A stretch of 62,375 nucleotides of DNA, counting the filler, from Aduncisulcus paluster (taxonomy: Eukaryota): assembly GCA_024181965.1 (NCBI GenBank). It is 5 parts of 5 records of this genome, joined end to end, with 100 filler letters (N's around TTAATTAATTAA, not from the genome) between each part and the next. Parts side by side here need not be neighbours in the genome. Positions count along the whole stretch, not along the records: positions 1 to 25,374 come from BQXS01009964.1; 4 more parts are not named here. The stretch is one strand, 5' to 3'. Positions 1-11,085 of the stretch are shown piece after piece (position 1 is the first letter of the stretch; each line of letters begins with the position of its first letter). Below the pieces are notes generated by a model. That model had not been told where the DNA came from and did not search any database. It saw nothing but the letters and a program-made list of their open reading frames with translations. The position numbers and the translations under genes were made by a program.

Positions 1-489
1 TGATAAATCAGGATTCTCGACTCGATCTAATGCTGCCTCAACCCTCGTACGGAAGGAGTCAACGCTGATCCCTTGAAGAAAATACTTCTTCGTCAGAGCA
101 GGGGAGGGTCGTTCTTCCTCAGCCACCAGTCGAATCGTCTTCCGGAATTGTTTAACGTAAATGGCTACAGCTTTTTCGGTTACCTCAGTCAAAACAAGCT
201 TCTCGAAACGGTAAAGGGCATCAAGTCCAGATAATTTCCCAAAGAAAGATGAAACAGCCTCAACAAAAGTAGACTCAGAGGCTCGAACTTCTTCAGGAGT
301 CATATCCTCGGGATTAGGTAACTTAACATGGCAAACGTCTTCGTAGATGGATAAGATATCCAAATCAATCAGAGTATACATGTCAGCAGTACCATGTCGT
401 GCTCGGTATTGTTCGTAAGCAGATTCAAAACGAGCGAAGTCTTTTTGCGAATAAAGAGCCAGAAAAGGGGGTCTTAGTGAGTCAGACAT
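1..489 (-). CDS. Gag-like protein of an LTR retrotransposon, running off the window start
   Basis: Manual translation from ATG at 489: MSDSLRPPFLALYSQKDFARFESAYEQYRARHG...KKYFLQGISVDSFRTRVEAALD, open to base 1. The N-terminal P-x-L...F..F...Y..Y...G pattern is shared with ORFs at 11495, 17674 and 25883. Confidence 0.6.
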   Translation of the reverse strand, partial: MSDSLRPPFLALYSQKDFARFESAYEQYRARHGTADMYTLIDLDILSIYEDVCHVKLPNPEDMTPEEVRASESTFVEAVSSFFGKLSGLDALYRFEKLVLTEVTEKAVAIYVKQFRKTIRLVAEEERPSPALTKKYFLQGISVDSFRTRVEAALDRVENPDLS

Positions 490-763
490 TTTTTGGTGAT
501 TAAGATCTTAATGTGCCAGTAATGCTTGAGTCAAATTTATTAGAAATATTTCAACAGCGTTCATCTATAAATAGAACATCGAGAAAGAAGTAAAACGATA
601 ATAAAAGTAGATAAAAGGTCTTAGTGAGTCAGACATTTTTTGGTGATTAAGATCTTAATGTGCCAGTAATGCTTGAGTCAAATTTATTAGAAATATTTCA
701 ACAGCGTTCATCTATAAATAGAACATCGAGAAAGAAGTAAAACGATAATAAAAGTAGATAAAA
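470..763. repeat. Perfect 147-bp tandem duplication covering the gag start codon and upstream region
   Basis: 470-616 is identical to 617-763 (ggtcttagtgagtcagacat...aaagtagataaaa). Confidence 0.9.
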
Positions 764-957
764 TATAATTATAGAAATAAATTATAAGCTGTTATAATTT
801 ATTTCAAGTCTAATACACCACAAGAAAGGCAGCCAGAGTGTGGGTCCTGGAGTAGAGAGTTGGGATAGGTCAGCAGAGATCTCTATCATCTCTCCGGCGA
901 GAGCGATGATGAGGTCAACCGAGGGGAGCTCGAAATCCTCGGCATGGGCATCAGCCA

Positions 958-1130
958 CTATGCCGAGGTTTCGCCAGAAAGTTGGAATGTCACAAGAAAG
1001 ACACCTGAGCAGAAACCACTTGGTGTTGACCAAGCAACCTCAGAGAAGAACGAATTTGGGCAGCAGCTATGGTTGGCAAAATGCCCTACCCCTTTAGAGA
1101 TTGCGGAGGGCAGAATAATTCTGTCACCAA
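958..1130 (-). pseudogene. Frameshifted C-terminal part of the SET domain
   Basis: GVGHFANHSCCPNS matches the SET NHSC-x-PN motif and lies in the adjacent frame directly after the YR-SET ORF. Confidence 0.8.
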
Positions 1131-2353
1131 AGGACATTATGTCCTTCGATGACCGAACGTGTTTCCTCTGATGACAGAATTTTCCTGGCACCAACGTGAC
1201 AGGTGAGGCCAGAGAACTCACACAGAAAGGTTTTTGCAGGAACAGCAACCTTCGTCTTCAGACAAAACCCCACTTCATAATTCTTCCAAGCAGCATAAGT
1301 CAGTGGGGTCTCCCAAAGACTCAGGGAAACGTCCCCATAATCATGACCATCGATTCTAACCAGCAGGTTAGGGTAAGTACAAAGGGTCATGACGTGTGAG
1401 CCAACGGTTCTTGCTACTTCTTCGTCGGTCGGATTTCGCCTAGGGCGACAGCAAAGTTTACCGACGTAAGCGGCGAGGACAGAGTTCTTGTTGACACTTC
1501 TCCCCCTTACAAAAACACCCTTCCCCATTTCCGAAGTCTCACGAACCTCCACTTTCCGTTCAGTATCACTAAACAGTTGCATAAAAGTCCTTTTAGCAAT
1601 CTTCGGAAGTGTACCCACACGAGCTTTACACAGATGAGAAAGAGCGAGAGGAGAAGCATTGGGGTAAACCAGGGAACAGATCTTCTTGTCAAGATCAGAG
1701 AGAGGAACAAGGGGAGGAATCTTCAAAGAAGACAGAGATTCGGAAGCAGTTTCCAAAAAATTCAACCAATCTTCCTTATCTCCAGAAACAGCGCAAGTTC
1801 TATCCAGGTAGATTTGCGTTGTTTTCGAATCAGAGTGCCTTCCCAATTGTCTTAGTTGCCCTTCATCCCCACCAAGCAAACGGTACACACCAAGCATTGT
1901 CCGCTTTAGAGAGTGAGGTTTGACATCAGTTCCCGCGGCACCTTTATACACACGTTTCAGAGACTGATAAAAAGTGCTTCTACGGTCTTCTACATCCTCA
2001 AAAAACAGAATAGAGTCCTCGCAGGAGTGTCCAGAAGCAGAGTGACACTTCTTGAGGAGCTCAAACGTGTTATTGAGGGCAAGAACAACATTCCGACGCA
2101 GAAAAGTAGGGAGAAAAGACAGTAGATTGGTTCCACTTTGTTTAACCACAGCACTCTTACAGGCAAAGTCCATGTAAGGCTCAGAAATACCAAAGTGGCA
2201 CTCGGAAAACTTCACGTTAGAGAGATCACCACCCCGAAGACACAAGAAGAGCTGACAAGAGAAAGCTAACAAATATTGTATAGCTTTCTCTCTTCTCTCA
2301 ACATCAAGGGCACAGGAAAATTTTGACAAAATATCATCAAGGATCTTCTCCAA
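1124..2353 (-). CDS. Tyrosine recombinase (Crypton/DIRS-like YR domain) fused to a SET domain
   Basis: YR catalytic signature LRGGDL...KPHSLKR...LGRHSDSKTTQIY, followed in frame by a SET N-terminal motif VEVRETSEMGKGVFVRGRSVNKNSVLAAYVGKL and a second one, GFCLKTKVAVPAKTFLCEFSG. The frame continues upstream past a single TAA (2408-2410) into ORF 2408-2875. Confidence 0.8.
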   Translation of the reverse strand: MEKILDDILSKFSCALDVERREKAIQYLLAFSCQLFLCLRGGDLSNVKFSECHFGISEPYMDFACKSAVVKQSGTNLLSFLPTFLRRNVVLALNNTFELLKKCHSASGHSCEDSILFFEDVEDRRSTFYQSLKRVYKGAAGTDVKPHSLKRTMLGVYRLLGGDEGQLRQLGRHSDSKTTQIYLDRTCAVSGDKEDWLNFLETASESLSSLKIPPLVPLSDLDKKICSLVYPNASPLALSHLCKARVGTLPKIAKRTFMQLFSDTERKVEVRETSEMGKGVFVRGRSVNKNSVLAAYVGKLCCRPRRNPTDEEVARTVGSHVMTLCTYPNLLVRIDGHDYGDVSLSLWETPLTYAAWKNYEVGFCLKTKVAVPAKTFLCEFSGLTCHVGARKILSSEETRSVIEGHNVLW

Positions 2354-2871
2354 GACATTGAGAGGGACAACAGGGGGAGGACGAGAGGGTGTCTTTTGGG
2401 GAGGCAGTTAGGGAATCAAGGATAAACTTTTCCTCGGGAGTGAAGAAGGGCAAGTCACGAAGAACCATTTTGAGTCGACCATAAAGAGAGGTCGACAGGT
2501 AATGTTGGGCAGAGCATTACGAAAACGGCGAGAGAGGAAAGTGTATAACTCCTTAAGGAGACGTAGGCTCTTGCCACTCTCTTTCAGAAACTGGGAAACA
2601 GCAGAAAATGAAAAATCACTACAGAGAAGGTCCTGAAAGTGCGGAAAGACAGTGGGATCAGCTACCGAACGGAGTCGGTGAGAGGACGCAATAGTGGCCT
2701 TAAGAGGCAGAAAGTCGGAGACAAAGGGTGGGGATTTAGTCCCGCATTTACACTTGATGAATAACTGCCTTTCGTGCTTAAATCGGAGTTCATATCCTTC
2801 CAGCGAGTCATCATTCACCATTGGGATTTTTTCATTTAGCTTGTTTATCTCCTTGAGTAGAGTTTGTTCTC

Positions 2872-3906
2872 TCATTTTCCCATTATTCTTCTTCTTTCTT
2901 CCTTACGTTGGATAGCCTCGATATGATGGCTTGAATGGCCGATTCCTGCCATGTGAGCTCGTCCGGCATCGCCGTATGCAATCAGAAGCTTCTTTTTCTC
3001 GTCCCCTGCCAGACGGACCAAGATGCTCCCGAAACGCATTACAAAGGAATTTTTTCTAATTATGTTACCAAATTTATGGCGTCTGAACACTGGGGCTTCG
3101 CGTAATTTTGAAAGTGAATCCCAATGGTGAAGGAGCTGCTTAAATCGGAGTTCATGTCCGTCCAACGAGTCATCCTTCACCATTGGGATTTTATCTTGGA
3201 GCTTATTGATCTCATTGATAAGAGTTTTTTCTCTCACTTTTCCGTTCTTCTTCTTCTTTCTTCCTCTCCTTTTCTTTCCTCTTCGCTTTCTTCTTCCTCC
3301 TTTCTTCTTTTCTTCTCTCTCTTTCTCTTTTTCTCTTTGCCAAGGAAAAAAGGCCTTTCTTCCTCTTCCTCTACATCTTTTTGAAACAAGATATCCCCCA
3401 CCATCAACAATTGTTCTTAAGGAGGGAAGGCTCATGTTGACGGTAGGGGATAACTCTAACTATCTGGTCTTTGATGTGGCTGTGGTACTGTTCGGAACCA
3501 GATATCACAGCCACACCAATAGGGAACTTATTCCAGGGTCTAAGCCCACACACATCACTGGAGAAGAAATAAGAGGAGGAGCAAGTGGTGATGAAGATGG
3601 AGTTGAAGAAGAAGTAGGAGCAAGAGAAGAGGAAAGAGACGAATAAGGGCTGGATCGGCTTGGGAACCCAAACAGAGTTCTCGTACTGATTCCATCCGTA
3701 TGGATGGAAAGTACCCCACAAGAACTCCGTTTGGGTTTCTCTACTTGGTTTCTAAACGTTTTTAACCTCTTGCCGAGGAGTTTCTTTCCTTTTTCGCTTA
3801 ATGTTAGTGGACGAGAAGTACAGGGGCGAGGGAGGGGATGAAATGCGGGGGAACCTTTGGTGTGGGGTAGAAGAGGGGGGACACGAATTTGGTTGGGGGG
3901 GATCAC
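2872..3906 (-). pseudogene. Fanzor1 (eukaryotic TnpB-like RNA-guided nuclease) remnant, C-terminally truncated
   Basis: Motifs in order: AFHPLPRP, SIHTDGISTRTLF (3691-3699), RuvC-I CVGLDPG (3532-3546), FRRHKFGNIIRK, LLIAYGDAG (2968-2982). ORFs 3505-3906 and 2872-3435 share a frame split by two stops. No RuvC-II/III motif was seen. Confidence 0.75.
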
Positions 3907-4088
3907 ACGTGCTATTGTGATAAAGGATTCTGTCTCTTAATAGCCGAATGTGTAGATGTCTCAATGAAAGATCATCTGACAAAAACGAAAAATATATTTA
4001 AAAAAAGGGCATTCCTATATATTTGTAAATCCTCTTGGGTCCAATCATGATGATGATTTCTTCCTCTTCATCCTCTTCTTCCTCTTCG

Positions 4089-5744
4089 TCAATATAATCG
4101 GCCGAGATCGTGGGCAGTGGTGTTCACGTAATTACCCTCGCTATGACTCAAGGGACTATCCCGGAGAAGAGTCCCTTCTTCACCACAGAACGCACCCATA
4201 TCGTCATCATCCCATCCTCCATCTGCACCAAACTCCTCCCCACACCCATATGGATCGGAGATCATCCCATTTTGGGGGATAGCACACGGCCAGTCAACCG
4301 AACCTTCTCTGACAACTTCCAGGACCTCAGAATCCCTGGTAATATTGATAGCGAAGTCAACCTTCTCATTGTGCTTTTCAAATGTCATTGAAAACTCAGG
4401 AAGGGAAGAAGAAGGTTGAACATCGCTCGCCAGCGCCATCTCGTATTTCGAGACACCCTCACCATTCACCAAGAAGTCAACAAGCCAATAATAGCCTCTT
4501 TAGGACTTACAGATTGACTCTCAAAAGAAAAATGACAATGTTGGAAAAGATGATCCGGCAAGAAACAAGGAACACCAAGATCACTCCTCCAACACGACTG
4601 TTTTCTTCCGACCTTACCCTGTCGAGATGCAAAGGTTTTCATACCCCGGAAAGACCGAACGACACTCCCTCTGGACCCAACTTTCACATCCTCTTCATGA
4701 AAGAGGAGATCAATCAGGTCCATAACAGAGCATCGACGGGCTTTACCATCGACTACGACCTTCACACTGAACATAGTGTATGGGTGATAGGACCTAATGA
4801 AAGGAACATTAAATACCCTTCGTAACACCGCAGAAACCCACATAAAATTGGAATTCATGAAAGCAAAGCGAGAAATATCAACGTCAGCTCCAATGGGAGT
4901 ACCGTGGGAAAAGGCACAGAGCTGTTCAAACAACATATCATAGACATTATCAGACTTCAACATCTCGTTGTCCAAAGGAGGCAAACAAACCTGTTTACCA
5001 TCTTTAATCAGAGATTTACGCATCGAAATACCAGAGAATGAGGGATGAAGAGCCTTACCACATCTAACCACTCGTTGAAGAGAAGACTCGGCAATGGGGC
5101 CATATTCAACGGGGACAGAATCACGGCTAGGAAGAGACACGCAAAAAGAACGATCTCCAGAAGGGGAGCAACGGAAGGGATAACGGATATCTCCAATGTC
5201 AAAGGGTCCAAGCAAACCTTGAATGACAGAATAAATCTGCTCCATGCAGAAAAGAAAACGATGCCTTGAGATCACAGATGACTGGACATCAATGTCTTTG
5301 TAGGTAGAGTCGAGCTCTCCAATGAGGCTGAGCTGCTCAGATTCAGATTTTCCGTAATCCAACACCCTCCCCACAGACGTGGGTAGAAATGGATAAGCCT
5401 CGAGCACGGCAAATCTGCTTGATACCAGCTATGGCGTCGGTAGGATCATCAACTGAAACGGAAGCAAGCTCAGCCATAGCTGCTGATAGCCTGGCAAGCT
5501 CTTTCTTCACGTGAGCCATCATCACAGCCTTCAAGTGTGAGGCATGCTTCTGAGGAGAAAGGAGATCACGAAGAGAAGCAGCTACACTTGGAGAAGCGGA
5601 TGGCCTGCAGCTTAGAAAGGTTCCAGGGGTCTCAGAAAGGGGATTAACACATTTTGTTATCTCTTTTAGAGAGGATTCGACATATGATATATTATGTAAT
5701 TTTCTTAGTAATTTATCTTCAAGTCGTGGTACATCATGCCACAC
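4089..5744 (-). pseudogene. Unknown element-encoded protein in three overlapping ORFs (5343-5744, 4466-5407, 4089-4472)
   Basis: Consecutive overlapping minus-strand ORFs consistent with one frameshifted gene; no recognised domain. Confidence 0.4.
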
Positions 5745-5939
5745 GATGAGGACATATGATATGTTATGTCTTCAAGTCGTGGTACACCATGCCACGTGTT
5801 GAAGTACAGTATAGTGGATATATTTTACTCAATATACTTTGAACATATTGAACAACGATTTCTGGTTGAAGAAAGACATTGTTTGCACATAGGATTATTG
5901 CAGGATGGACAAATCTTGCAAACTGTTTTCAATTGACAT

Positions 5940-6275
5940 CTACACGTCATTGTACTTTCCTTTTCTTCCTCTTCTTCCTTTTCTATCTTCAATTAACTTT
6001 TTTTTCTTATATTCAACCTGTTTTCTTTTATAATCATTTTTCCAATCAATCAAAGTATCATACATTAATAATGGAGAGTGAAATTGCGATTTTAAGAATC
6101 TCCTCAACCAACTTTCAGAGATCTTAGGGATTTTATGCTTAAGATTGGTCGTTGGATGAATTTTTAGCACACTATTTGCAAGTGAGACGAAAGTTTTTAT
6201 ATCTACAGGCCATTTTGTATACGATGGCGTTCTTAACTCTATCCTCGCAATACAATAGTGTTTGAGGATATTCAA
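5940..6275 (-). pseudogene. CENP-B/Tc5 (pogo-type) helix-turn-helix fragment
   Basis: KISESWLRRFLK resembles the S-x-G/S-W-L-x-R-F motif of HTH_Tnp_Tc5. Confidence 0.5.
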
Positions 6276-6538
6276 TACAATTTCCTTTTTTTACCTTTGA
6301 TTTTTTATCCTCTTTTCTCCCCATTGCAAAGAAAACAACAAATTTTTTGAAAATCTGATCTACATTTTTTCGAAAAAATTCTCGATTGAATAAGATGTCC
6401 ACGGCAACCAGCCAAAAGTCTTGCTTGGATATCTCCACACTTTTGTCTAACCCTGTGCTGAGAGTAAAAAGTATTCAGTAAGTCAATTTATTATAAACAA
6501 CGGAATCCCACTGCCTTCTAACTGTTTTCTCTACCCTT

Positions 6539-7516
6539 TCACCAAGGGGATTTCCTTGATAAGGCAACCCTAAGGTAGTTTTGGGCCTTATCAAGCATCT
6601 CCTCGCTCTCTTCCTCTTCCTCTTCTGCAGAAGGGAGCTGGTCTTTGATAATGTTTAGAAACACTTTGTAAAAATCTATGTCCTTCGCATCTAGAGAGAG
6701 ACAGAGAGAGAGAGGAAGTAAGATTAGAATTAACAAGAAGTAACAGAATTAACATTAGAAGTAATAGAAGTAATTAACAGTACGTACCGACATTAACAAT
6801 GCATTCCATACATGCGTCTATACTATCTAGGAAATAAAATGGAATTAGGGACGACGGATAGTGTATATCGCCATCAGGAGCCCATTGTACAGGCACACTT
6901 GGAATTCCACCAAGTATAATGCTTTGCTCGAACATTACGGCAGTAATTGAATACATAATTGAATTTTTATCGTGGGAAAAATAAATAAAATTGTCCATCT
7001 CCTCGTTAAATAAATTACTACTAGTAATAGTATCTAAATCGCCATCTTCAGCAGATAGTTCCCCTTCGAATGAACATAGTGGAGTAGATGGTGGTGGAGT
7101 AGATGGAAGTGGCACGCAAATGGAGCTGTAGAAAGAGATCTTTGAATAAGAAAATCATGGGAACGACGATAATAATCAAGACAAACATCCTCATCTTTAT
7201 CAAGCAGTGGAAGTCCCACTAAGACAGTGTGAGATTCTGGGAACAACAAAAGAGGTTGATACAACATTGAACCATCTGCGTGGGTTTCTTTGAGCCGTAG
7301 ATACCCTTGACATGGGCTGTCATCATCACCACAATGCCATGCACCTGGGAGGTCAATGTCTTTCCACGGAACAATGGTTCTTAGACAAATCGGATTTGTA
7401 CATTGAATCGAATAATGACAATTCCTAATGTTATCAACGGTGGAATCTTTGTGGAGGAAGGGTGTCAGATCCACACTTTCTTTTCGAAATCCACCTTTCT
7501 TAGTTTCAACGTACAC
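6539..7516 (-). pseudogene. Element-encoded protein with a CW-type zinc finger; spliced and frameshifted
   Basis: YSIQCTNPICLRTIVPWKDIDLPGAWHCGDDDSPC resembles zf-CW. The downstream ORFs 6774-7115 and 6539-6736 join in frame across an intron. Confidence 0.45.
6691..6787 (-). other. Spliceosomal intron (97 nt)
   Basis: Minus strand GTACGT...CTAAT...pyrimidine tract...CTAG. Removal joins ...CIVNV|DAKDIDFYK in frame. Confidence 0.7.
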
Positions 7517-8067
7517 ATCTTTAAAAAGATGTCTTCAACAATTGAATATTGTTATTCATATGGGGAAAAAGTTATGAGAACAGTTGTAAGAATGGATCAC
7601 CTCTAGGTAGCAAGCCCTTTCACAAGGAATAAGTGCTGATATTATACCCTTACGATCAAGATCTTCAATAGAAAGCACCCTAAAGGTTTCAGTGGGATAG
7701 TCTCCCTGAATCTCAGCGACATAGAACTCTTTCCGACAGTTGGGGCATTTTTTATAAGGCAGGTCTAGGATGTAGGNNNNNNNNNNNNNNNNNNNNTCAA
7801 CGTACACATCTTTAAAAAGATGTCTTCAACAATTGAATATTGTTATTCATATGGGGAAAAAGTTATGAGAACAGTTGTAAGAATGGATCACCTCTAGGTA
7901 GCAAGCCCTTTCACAAGGAATAAGTGCTGATATTATACCCTTACGATCAAGATCTTCAATAGAAAGCACCCTAAAGGTTTCAGTGGGATAGTCTCCCTGA
8001 ATCTCAGCGACATAGAACTCTTTCCGACAGTTGGGGCATTTTTTATAAGGCAGGTCTAGGATGTAGG
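7506..8067. other. Assembly overlap duplication around a 20-N gap
   Basis: 7506-7776 is repeated at 7797-8067 on either side of the N run. Confidence 0.9.
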
Positions 8068-8379
8068 AATACCTTGTCTTCCCAGACTGTGCATGGGTCA
8101 TGAGAACTCTTCACTCCAAAAAAATGGATGTTACCCAATCTTCGACGAACATGGAATGTTCACAAAGGAATAAGACAATATTAAGTATTTCACCTTTTTA
8201 TGGTTTGACATACCATCGAGAAAAACTTGTATTCATACGACAAGAAAAGGAATGTGTGGCAGTGATAGTTCTTCTTCTAGTTCGTATAGAACTTCCACCA
8301 GCTGTTTCTGCATCCAAAAACTTCTCTAATCACGGATTGAATCCATTCCGACGCTCGTCCAGATTCCAGAGAAGTATAT

Positions 8380-9200
8380 TATAGTGAAATGCATCGACTG
8401 CCGCTACGGCGGAATGTTAGTAGCATTCTTTCATCGGTCATAGCTGACATTCTTGTTTTTTCCAGCTGCTTCAGAAAGGATTTCCGATATGAATCAATGG
8501 ATAACAAGCAATTTTGATGGGGACTCTTAAAATATTGGTTTACCGGAACCAATAATAACTTTGGGAAATCCGAGGACAAATTCCTCGAGTTCGGCCGAGA
8601 CAAATTTGTATGTCCCTCTCTTCTCCTTTCCTCTTAGGCATTCCCACGCTGTCAAAAAGAAAGAGATAGGTGTCTTGGCATTTACATTTTGAACAGATTA
8701 GCCGGCCTTCATATCCAAGAATTGCCTTCCGCTGAGGAGTGTCAGCCACGATCGAGTGGAGGTAGCATCGGGGACGTGTCTGTTTACCATCCACTTCCAC
8801 AAGAAATCCCTTTTGTAGGGCCGCGACCTCGGCCACGAGCTTCTCCATGGCATCAATCGTGCCATCATGGGGAAATGCCCCAACCTCCCAAGTGTTATTC
8901 ATCAGTTTTCTCTCTTGGAGAGGGAGATTGATACACTGGGCCTTCACTACCAGCACACTTGTTCCACTCTTTTCAACCATGACGACTCCATCCAAGAAGA
9001 ACGGGAGCCCCACACACCATAAGCGTTCTGTTTGTTCAGTACAGTCAAGTTGGCACCAGTCAATTGCGTCTGCATGCCTCTGAAAGTTTACGCATTCCTC
9101 CCCGGTGGGAGGACTCAGGCCCATGCAGTCTCTGCATTTCAGCAGTTCATCCAGATTGTCAGTTATAATGGCTTTCAGGAGTGTCCGTTGAGTAATTCTT
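8380..9200 (-). pseudogene. CMC (EnSpm/CACTA-Mirage-Chapaev)/Plavaka-type DDE transposase, fragmented
   Basis: LPFFLDGVVMVEKSGTSV (first Asp), HSIVADTPQRKAILGYEGRLICSKC (second Asp plus CxxC), and VDAFH (D-x-x-H) in another frame near 8385-8400. Confidence 0.7.
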
Positions 9201-11085
9201 CTGGTAACATCAGCTCTTTGGCGGGATGAGACCGACGACGTGCAATAATTCGGATTTTGGATAAATTATTTCGCATGACGCATTTTGGGAATTTTTCGTG
9301 TACAAGATCATAAACGTGTTTCAAGACAAGTAATATTCTCTTCGGAGGTCACAGAACTTATGCCCGTACCGACAGAGACACCACGAAGTGGAGGTTATTT
9401 CCATCATTTATGAAGACTCCACTCTCTTTACGAAAAAAGACACAGTGAGAAAGAGCAGAAATATGGCCTCCTTGGAGATGGCTCGGCTATTGTTATTTCC
9501 CACGCAGGCATTATGCCAAACATCAATCATTTTTCTTCGGGGAAAGGTATCCCATTTGTTATGATATTTTAGGTATTTTTATATGATTTTATTCTATTTC
9601 TCATGTTGCTATTTTTAGCTTCGGTTTATTTGTTTGTTTCAGTAAATTTGCAACGTTATAACACCATTGTCTTTAGTCTTGGGAATTGGATTCGCAGCTG
9701 GTATGAAGGTACTACTAAAGTGGGCAAAGAAACTTATATTGGCTCAAAGGGGACATTAAAAAGAAACTCAGACCCATGCTGAGTAAACAATTATCAATTA
9801 CTAATTGTCAGTAACTTAAAATAAGGTGCATGTGTCTCAAAGTTCCAGCAAAAAGCCGTGCGGGAATAATGTAGTACAGTTATCGAAAATCGAAAATGAT
9901 CTGTCACGGAAGCAATTCAATGAATTTTTCATCTCCACCAAGATAGCAGATGTGAATAGGTTTATTACGGCGCTGTAAGATGTTCGCGACATCTATATAG
10001 TATTGGGCCTTTTATAGCTCAGCTGGTTTGTCAACAGTGTTGCAACACTTTGTCAACATAATATTGGATCGCCTGGAATATTCGGAACTTGCTGAAATGC
10101 AAAGAAAGTTTCTTCAATGCTTGAAGCCTTTGAAAATGTATGAATACATTGGGAAAATTATTATAACGTTTTAGCTTATCCAGCCGCTCGAGCTCGATTT
10201 CACCGAAGTTTGAGAGAGATCTCGCTCGTCTTGTATCCTTCTGACGGAGCAGCTCGACTTGTCTTTGGAGTCTTATAATAGCTTCTGAGCACCTGCTCTT
10301 TAACTGAGGTTCCTGTGATGGTTTCTTCGACCTCGTCTGGTTCTGGGTCATGTTAGTTTCTTCGTGATTGTCTAGGCATTACTACAGCTCGCGCTTGTTT
10401 AAATGTGAACAAGACAGGAGATGTTATCCTTGCGAGTATGAACCCGATCCGATCGGAGTGGGAGGTTCGTTATCAGAAAGCTTCGCACGTTAAGTCAATC
10501 AGCAATTATATCCTGGAATTCTTTTCTTAAGGAATAGGATAATCGACGGGGAGGAATATGAATCGTTTTTATTTTACAAAATGGCTTTTTAAGTCATTTG
10601 ACGCTCTTTCGATAATTTCTTTTTTTTGTAGATTCTAATCTTCCACACAATGCTCTATAACTAACCCAAACTTTAATCCCATTTCGATCCTTTTTTTCTA
10701 ACAGGTCAATTTCTTCAATCATTTTTCTTGTTTCTTTTCAAATGGCGATCATTTTTAGAATGAGTCTGATTGAACAATTTCTTTTATTATGGTATGGATA
10801 TTAGTATAATTGTAATTATATGTCACATATTTATTTATTTTACTTATTATTATTTATTTATTTTGATATCAATAATAGTCGGAAACACATTGATTAAACC
10901 ATTTTGATCATTTGTGTAGAGGGTTATTATTTCATAATAACTTGTAATTCGTTTGAAATCCTTAAAATATCCCATTCGATTGTCACTGAGAGGGTTGTGA
11001 TAGGAGCAAGAAGTAATCTATTGCTAAAGACTTTTCCAAAAGTTTTCAATGAATATAGTGGAGAGATATGTCGCACTAGTATAAT

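Follow-up and report, generated by a model that had tools for sequence, protein, structure and literature searches.

A probable relic of a Fanzor-type nuclease gene and its intact-looking paralogue in the fornicate Aduncisulcus paluster

Among the TnpB/Cas12 RNA-guided nucleases, Fanzors form the eukaryotic branch, and they attract interest as compact tools for genome editing. Here, we describe what is probably the remnant of a Fanzor-type gene, directly followed by a tyrosine-recombinase frame, on the minus strand of a 62,375-nucleotide (nt) stretch of the Aduncisulcus paluster genome (GenBank assembly GCA_024181965.1; five parts joined end to end, here referred to as the window or the 62-kb window). 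An earlier note, made from the sequence alone, had proposed that positions 2,872 to 3,906 hold a degraded Fanzor1 nuclease from a putative fornicate, recognizable by the motifs TDG, GLDPG, RRHKF, and IAYGD in that order and spread over open reading frames (ORFs) that are listed separately. All four motifs were found in the proposed order in a single minus-strand frame, running from 3906 to 2875, which comprises 344 codons with two in-frame stops. The two stops, a TGA and a TAG, split this frame into the two separately listed ORFs. Its features are as follows, with P0002 denoting the A. paluster protein described below.

3505..3906 and 2872..3435, minus strand: the two ORFs given separately in the ORF list, both in the same frame
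3508..3906, minus strand: block 1 of the Fanzor remnant, homologous to P0002 residues 187-298 and holding TDG and GLDPG
3699-3691, minus strand: TDG motif, in the Fanzor remnant frame
3540-3532, minus strand: DPG of the GLDPG motif (RuvC-I), in the Fanzor remnant frame
3505..3507, minus strand: in-frame TGA stop, in the 5' arm of a palindromic insertion (hairpin H2)
3460..3462, minus strand: in-frame TAG stop, 15 codons beyond the TGA
3238..3381, minus strand: low-complexity tract rich in K, R, and E, frame residues 176-223 (about 48 residues), a purine-rich simple repeat
2905..3234, minus strand: block 2 of the Fanzor remnant, homologous to P0002 residues 345 to about 445 and holding RRHKF and IAYGD; homology ends about here
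3084-3070, minus strand: RRHKF motif, in the Fanzor remnant frame
2979-2968, minus strand: AYGD of the IAYGD motif, the canonical RuvC-II strand, in the Fanzor remnant frame

We searched this frame as a read-through, with X at the stops, against a phmmer library of 1,835,955,588 representative proteins and kept hits with E values of ≤0.001. Four matches were obtained: P0001, the 1,846-amino-acid (aa) public gene model of the locus itself (E = 9e-180); P0002, a protein of 559 aa and the best match besides the locus's own model (E = 4.4e-10); P0003 (122 aa; E = 1.5e-5); and P0004 (252 aa; E = 9.2e-4). When P0002 was compared with the window by tblastn, two collinear blocks were returned, with residues 187-298 matching 3885..3532 (E = 0.004) and residues 345-460 matching 3234..2881 (E = 3.6e-8); the seven remaining matches lay elsewhere in the window at E values of ≥1.2. 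By the same method, P0003 (E = 3e-10) and P0004 (E = 6.5e-7) matched block 1. Smith-Waterman scores against P0002 were 137 for block 1, compared to a shuffle mean of 38.3 (z = 16.7), and 116 for block 2, compared to 32.2 (z = 17.5), with the low-complexity tract excluded from the shuffle test of block 2. For neither block did any of 1,000 shuffles reach the observed score. Judged by these alignments, the homology of the remnant to P0002 is real.

P0002 is an apparently intact paralogue, as had been anticipated from the idea that intact copies may exist elsewhere in this genome. Residues 459-520 pass the Pfam profile PF07282 (Cas12f1-like TNB) with 37.7 bits (cut-off, 26.3; E = 2.3e-9), and the UniProt label of the protein is "Cas12f1-like TNB domain-containing." P0002 also matched the PHROGs transposase family phrog_506 (E = 2e-10) and the NCBIfam family guided_TnpB (E = 1e-7, over the last 58 profile positions only and under the family cut-off), with weak matches to IS200_TnpB and Cas12f2 from the same collection. 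Along its length we found DPG at residue 296, Gly430 in LLAYGD, Glu476 in VDEYHTSKLCPYC, zinc-finger cysteines C483, C486, C502, and C506 (the second half being CTDGC), and RD at residues 512-513, so that a TNB domain above the Pfam cut-off is combined with the Asp, alternative Glu, zinc finger, and RD in order. Glu476 lies 46 residues past Gly430 and exactly six residues before the first CxxC (CPYC). The Fanzor motif in the relevant part of Bao and Jurka (2013, PMC3627910) is D-X(125,275)-[TS][TS]-x-x-C4-X(5,50)-RD. In passages of PMC10711439, the RuvC-I motif of Fanzors is DPG, and an alternative Glu precedes the zinc finger by six residues; in passages of PMC10530073, Gly or Pro stands where the canonical RuvC-II Glu would be, and a Glu some 45 residues away compensates for it. 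The layout predicted for P0002 is thus the published Fanzor layout.

The remnant retains part of this layout. All five sequences in A1, an alignment of the family, share the TDG and the Asp of DPG, and the remnant keeps the catalytic RuvC-I Asp, as previously claimed, within its DPG. It also keeps the conserved block LPT.K...F.PL / G.R.L.K.LK / TDG. Block 2 consists of the helices between RuvC-I and RuvC-II followed by the canonical RuvC-II strand, where IAYGD aligns with LLAYGD of P0002 and carries Gly in place of the canonical Glu. We infer the position of this Glu from the spacing in P0002, in which Gly430 stands 46 residues before Glu476, rather than from a structure.

What follows this strand in P0002 is absent from the remnant, which contains no alternative Glu, no zinc finger or TNB domain, and no RuvC-III RD. 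The claim that RuvC-II and RuvC-III are missing therefore stood for the alternative Glu, the zinc finger, and RuvC-III, but not for the canonical RuvC-II strand, which is present with its Gly. No minus-strand frame between 2940 and 1 contains [TS][TS]xxCxxC, and no ExxxxxxCxxC occurs downstream either. Neither residues 1-186 nor residues 461-559 of P0002 have a tblastn counterpart in the 62-kb window; the sole match within the latter segment covers residues 501-521 at an E value of 2.0 and lies elsewhere in the window. The 3' end is accordingly missing, as the earlier note had it, and the description of the gene as degraded is borne out by the two in-frame stops, the truncation of both ends, and the insertions. 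Guide RNAs of Fanzors and TnpBs are encoded at the 3' end of the ORF, according to passages of PMC10432273 and PMC10530073, and an Rfam scan of positions 1-10000 returned nothing above gathering scores. With two of the three predicted catalytic residues gone, no nuclease activity would be possible; the remnant cannot, on this reading of its sequence, be an active nuclease because the alternative Glu, the zinc finger, RuvC-III, and the 3' end are all missing.

Every relative that we found belongs to A. paluster. A word-indexed search with the whole of P0002 gave three matches among 7,999 scored candidates, all from A. paluster, and a word-indexed search of 5.8 billion proteins with residues 400-559 recovered only P0002 itself among 163 candidates. 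P0005 (575 aa) is 82% identical to P0002 across 59% of the length of P0002; by eye, the shared part is the N-terminal ~340 residues, and the rest is unrelated. P0006 has a GIDPG strand as well as a helix piece of 39 residues that is 85% identical. P0003 and P0007 have DPG mutated to DED in alignment A1, and P0004 is a further fragment. The remnant is 27 to 43% identical to any A. paluster relative. These proteins appear to represent at least four mutually distant sub-lineages, most of them broken, which argues for long residence in the genome and not for contamination. A fornicate host, suspected from the outset, is supported indirectly by the fact that the named relatives are all from A. paluster and by the GC content of the window, 0.31 to 0.46, compared to 39.1% for the A. 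paluster genome (PMC9933649). Searches of viral contigs with A1 gave 68 pattern matches, and searches of metagenome contigs with P0002 gave 208; none was confirmed in either case. A resemblance seen by eye between the ORFs upstream of the remnant and the non-Fanzor halves of P0005 and P0006 was dropped, as tblastn found none in the window at E values of ≤0.01.

The remnant frame also contains hairpins and one copy of a direct repeat, as follows.

3665..3737, minus strand: hairpin H1 across the TDG codons, with outer and inner stems of 21 and 8 bp (minimum free energy [MFE], -44.7; z = -6.23)
3471..3519, minus strand: hairpin H2, with a 14-bp main stem (MFE, -27.9; z = -4.74; 0 of 200 shuffles)
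3117..3190, minus strand: hairpin H3, with an 18-bp stem that is 100% complementary (MFE, -39.5; z = -6.75)
3137..3265, minus strand: 129-bp direct repeat, copy A, lying within the Fanzor frame
2775..2903, minus strand: 129-bp direct repeat, copy A', which is 86% identical to A, lies 362 bp downstream, and is in frame with the recombinase ORF

Compared to P0002 and P0004 in alignment A1, the remnant has an insertion of ~15 residues at 3519-3471, which coincides with H2, and the 5' arm of H1 overlaps an insertion of ~9 residues relative to the homologues. Of the three hairpins within the remnant, two thus coincide with insertions, which suggests that these were templated (by fold-back or template switching). 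The distance from DPG to the next helix is 101 residues in the remnant and 49 in P0002, having been doubled by the K/R/E-rich tract; the purine-rich simple repeat that encodes this tract (family D2) occurs 12 times within the first 9 kb. The H1 region matches the mir-219 model on both strands with 27.5 and 26.3 bits, under the gathering score of 54.5, and the strongest 100-nt fold of the whole 62-kb window, at 3641-3740 (about -45 kcal/mol), lies on the TDG codons. Strong hairpins crowd positions 1-9000 in general, where 12 of the 25 strongest nonoverlapping 100-nt folds occupy ~14% of the window length (examples are 3641-3740, 871-970, 4651-4750, 1081-1180, 3101-3200, and 5711-5810); the GC content there is somewhat higher, and this enrichment was counted without GC matching.

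Copy A aligns to P0002 residues ~340-375 and is therefore native Fanzor sequence, and copy A' is a second Fanzor-derived piece. The sequence after A' is unrelated to that after A and runs in frame into the tyrosine-recombinase ORF. The homology between A and A' stops just before the 3' arm of H3, and its upstream limit falls within the purine-rich tract. The two copies differ by 7 synonymous and 11 nonsynonymous changes, giving a ratio of nonsynonymous to synonymous substitution rates (dN/dS) of 0.32 over only 42 codons; this sample is too small for more than a weak hint that A and A' may have diverged as parts of working genes in separate copies of the element and were later joined. The homology between P0006 and P0002 ends at ...EVLKE, about six residues from where the homology between A and A' ends beside the 18-bp hairpin, and these endpoints could mark a shared breakpoint-prone site or an unrecognized exon boundary.

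Directly downstream of the remnant lies the second gene of the locus:

1127..2875, minus strand: frame of a tyrosine recombinase, 583 codons long and interrupted once, by a TAA at 2410-2408

The ATG of this frame overlaps the TGA of the Fanzor frame (ATGA). The recombinase matched the integrase family phrog_1, both as the 409-aa ORF (E = 4.3e-7) and as the read-through (E = 6.3e-8), as well as phrog_216 (E = 1.1e-5) and NCBIfam XerA (E = 9.9e-5), and it matched Pfam Phage_integrase with 16.6 bits (E = 0.0069), under the cut-off of 27.1. No reverse transcriptase family was detected in the 1,846-aa P0001, which spans the region, so the locus has a tyrosine-recombinase catalytic domain without a reverse transcriptase. 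The read-through had no relatives among 8,000 candidates of 320 to 1,021 aa, the window holds no second copy of the recombinase, and no element ends could be defined at the locus. The C-terminal ~220 residues of the recombinase (1127-1800, minus strand) bear a weak language-model likeness to SET-domain proteins (Atlas score, 0.87; 115 of 256 features). No Pfam SET match was found for the recombinase ORF at E values of ≤1, and this likeness is a lead only; a recombinase-SET fusion, if true, would be unusual.

Fanzor1 genes are recognized by their placement in the Fanzor1 clade and by the lack of an IS607 serine recombinase or helix-turn-helix architecture. For the remnant, type 1 rather than type 2 is suggested by the distance of P0002 from TnpB and by the tyrosine, not serine, recombinase next to it. 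Fanzor1 genes occur in elements with Crypton tyrosine recombinases, according to PMC3627910 (section 12) and passages of PMC10711439 and PMC10530073. The adjacency at our locus would fit this association, but it concerns a single decayed locus without element ends and may be an accident of rearrangement.

Upstream of the remnant, the ORFs at 4089-8101 (minus strand) correspond to the first ~800 residues of P0001. They matched no Pfam, NCBIfam, or PDB family at a useful E value, and several predicted introns in them have good GTAAG donors. Two exact (100%) duplications, at 7506-7776 and 7797-8067 (271 nt, at a spacing of 291 nt) and at 470-616 and 617-763 (147 nt, in tandem), lie inside this long chimeric gene model, the former repeating an N-terminal segment that resembles a CPNC zinc ribbon; very recent duplication or an assembly artefact could account for them. 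The window has a eukaryotic look, with long ORFs for ABC transporters, protein kinases, an arrestin-domain protein, a RanBP1-domain protein, and a subtilase.

Taken together, we consider that 3906 to 2905 on the minus strand is a nonfunctional relic of a Fanzor-type RNA-guided nuclease gene, with a probability of roughly 0.85. The homology, the missing parts, and the lesions were observed directly in this analysis. The ancestor would have been an active guide-RNA nuclease on a mobile element, possibly of a tyrosine-recombinase (Crypton-like) kind. From this gene the N-terminal ~186 residues have been lost, and so have the C-terminal ~100 residues with the alternative Glu, zinc finger, and RuvC-III Asp, together with any 3' region for a guide (omega) RNA. 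Further decay shows in the two nonsense codons, one of them within an inserted palindrome, in a simple-repeat expansion that added the K/R/E-rich tract, and in a rearrangement that set the short Fanzor piece A' directly before the tyrosine-recombinase gene.

Several observations weigh against this interpretation. The identity of the remnant to P0002 is only 27 to 32%. The earlier note had made a match of the joined translation to TnpB/Fanzor RuvC profiles its test, and as worded, the frame fails this test: directly, it matched no Pfam family at E values of ≤1 and no PHROGs family at E values of ≤0.1, its only NCBIfam match was at chance level, and no Fanzor, TnpB, or Cas12 was found among PDB sequences, where its 12 matches all had E values of ≥0.46 and were F-BAR and ribosomal proteins found via the basic low-complexity tract. 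The link is nevertheless made through significant, collinear homology to P0002, which itself passes TnpB/Fanzor profiles. P0002, for its part, misses the strict regular expression of PMC10711439, as its spacer from DPG to Glu is 177 residues rather than 120 to 160 and it has CxxxC rather than CxxC. Against PDB sequences it found no solved Fanzor, TnpB, or Cas12f, its only matches being two acid phosphatase entries at E values of ≥0.19. An AlphaFold2 model of P0002 built from the five rows of A1 had a mean predicted local distance difference test (pLDDT) score of 41.3 and a predicted template modeling (pTM) score of 0.22, too poor for fold comparison. In addition, the P0001 gene model removes both stops of the remnant by a 99-nt in-frame GT..AG intron, and pseudogene status is therefore not proven by RNA data; a word search of sequencing runs listed no RNA run that contains the locus, with 0.88 of the words present in one DNA-type run and 0.17 in one run guessed to be RNA.

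The last of these points leads to an alternative that we consider improbable, though less so than the others: the remnant could be a working part of a long spliced multidomain gene, P0001, in which a domesticated, nuclease-dead Fanzor segment is fused to the tyrosine recombinase and introns remove the stops. P0001 maps to 8101 to 1 on the minus strand in 15 exact blocks, and GT..AG ends can be assigned to each of its gaps over the TGA and TAG (99 nt), over the frame change at 2904-2795, and over the TAA (66 nt). The recombinase ORF shares its frame with copy A', and the dN/dS of 0.32 between A and A' over 42 codons is a weak hint of past constraint. However, 14 introns would have to fit into 8.1 kb, whereas 11,743 introns are reported for the 15,316 proteins of A. 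paluster, or less than one per gene, in a draft of 25,863 contigs with an N50 of 4.6 kb (PMC9933649). Three of the 14 excise exactly the stops or the frame change, and the 99-nt "intron" stays in frame while covering both the palindromic insertion and sequence that is still alignable to relatives. A BLASTP comparison of the remnant frame with P0006 over the stop-bearing segment was not significant (best E value, 0.06), so it is chiefly A1 that indicates a coding past for the segment with the stops. Considering also that the catalytic parts past RuvC-I are all absent and that gene predictors routinely bridge pseudogene lesions with introns, we read P0001 as a probable bridge of this kind.

The gene could instead be intact but interrupted rather than truncated, with its C-terminal exons past the recombinase, off the window start, or lost by misassembly. 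The minus-strand reading does run off the window at position 1, and the nearby 271-nt and 147-nt exact duplications suggest assembly or very recent rearrangement artefacts. We nevertheless regard this as very unlikely, as the two nonsense codons are present, the N-terminal 186 residues are absent as well, no C-terminal match occurs within 62 kb, and the order of A, the intervening segment B, A', and the recombinase is unlike a simple insertion into an intact gene. Least probable of all is a chance resemblance of the motifs in a sequence unrelated to TnpB or Fanzor. The absence of a direct profile match for the frame would fit such a coincidence, as would the low complexity of part of it, which can inflate scores; it is hard to reconcile with an E value of 4.4e-10 in 1.84e9 proteins, with two collinear blocks outside the low-complexity tract that each have a z score of about 17, and with three further paralogous fragments matching the same N-terminal block. 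The relic of a Fanzor-type gene thus remains our preferred reading.

As a dead remnant, the sequence matters only as a signpost to a fornicate Fanzor family and to its possibly active paralogue P0002. Standard profiles miss this family except for the last ~60 residues of one intact-looking copy. Full-text literature searches returned no paper joining Fanzor with metamonads, Giardia, or Excavata, nor TnpB with metamonads, although the supplementary tables of the large 2023 surveys may list some; Fanzor and Trichomonas co-occurred only in an AlphaFold 3 review, and Table 1 of Bao and Jurka (PMC3627910), for its part, lists no metamonad. The remnant points to a highly divergent lineage of Fanzors in a group for which none seems to have been reported. 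In its fullest form, a proposal that we put forward tentatively and hold to be doubtful as a whole, A. paluster (Fornicata, Metamonada) would carry an old, diversified, and extremely divergent Fanzor lineage of at least four sub-lineages, the first in metamonads, whose 559-aa member with the full D-E-D set is possibly an active guide-RNA nuclease linked to a tyrosine-recombinase element and whose dead copies decay via hairpin-forming templated insertions. If P0002 is active, the range of the family would grow by a short and distant Fanzor and by a host supergroup new to it.

Among known systems, P0002 comes closest in language-model terms to the TNB/DUF8286 proteins that giant viruses (Nucleocytoviricota) encode. 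In the ESM Atlas, the clusters nearest to it score 0.98 with 207 to 209 of 256 features, comprise PF07282 clusters of 623 to 707 aa, and in 22 of 30 cases belong to the PF07282 and/or DUF8286 set, mostly from giant viruses; this is a lead only. Unlike those proteins, P0002 has no Pfam DUF8286 match at E values of ≤1, and no relative was found in viral contigs. Like prokaryotic TnpB (IS200/IS605 and IS607), P0002 has a C-terminal TNB/RuvC-III part that matches guided_TnpB, with an E value of 1e-7, but the match covers only ~58 residues under the NCBIfam cut-off, and the remnant has none of the matching part. Passages of PMC10711439 ascribe to TnpBs typically a D-hydrophobic-G and the canonical Glu. 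The arrangement of the locus resembles that of the Crypton-Fanzor element MCi-2A of Mucor circinelloides, as described in part of PMC3627910, in that the remnant lies directly upstream of a same-strand tyrosine-recombinase ORF and no reverse transcriptase was seen; unlike such elements, it is one decayed locus for which no ends, second copy, or recombinase relatives were found. Another of the closest systems is Fanzor1 (SPu-1-1p/SpuFz1 of Spizellomyces punctatus; passages of PMC3627910 and PMC10432273). P0002 differs from it in being short (559 aa), in its CxxxC and 177-residue spacer, and in having no sequence match to solved Fanzors, and the remnant differs in that both protein ends are gone, together with the alternative Glu, zinc finger, and RuvC-III. 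In common with Fanzor1, P0002 has the D...[TS][TS]xxC4...RD layout, the DPG, the RuvC-II Gly, the alternative Glu, a divergent N-terminal half, and a eukaryotic host, and the remnant keeps the DPG and the Gly-bearing RuvC-II strand.

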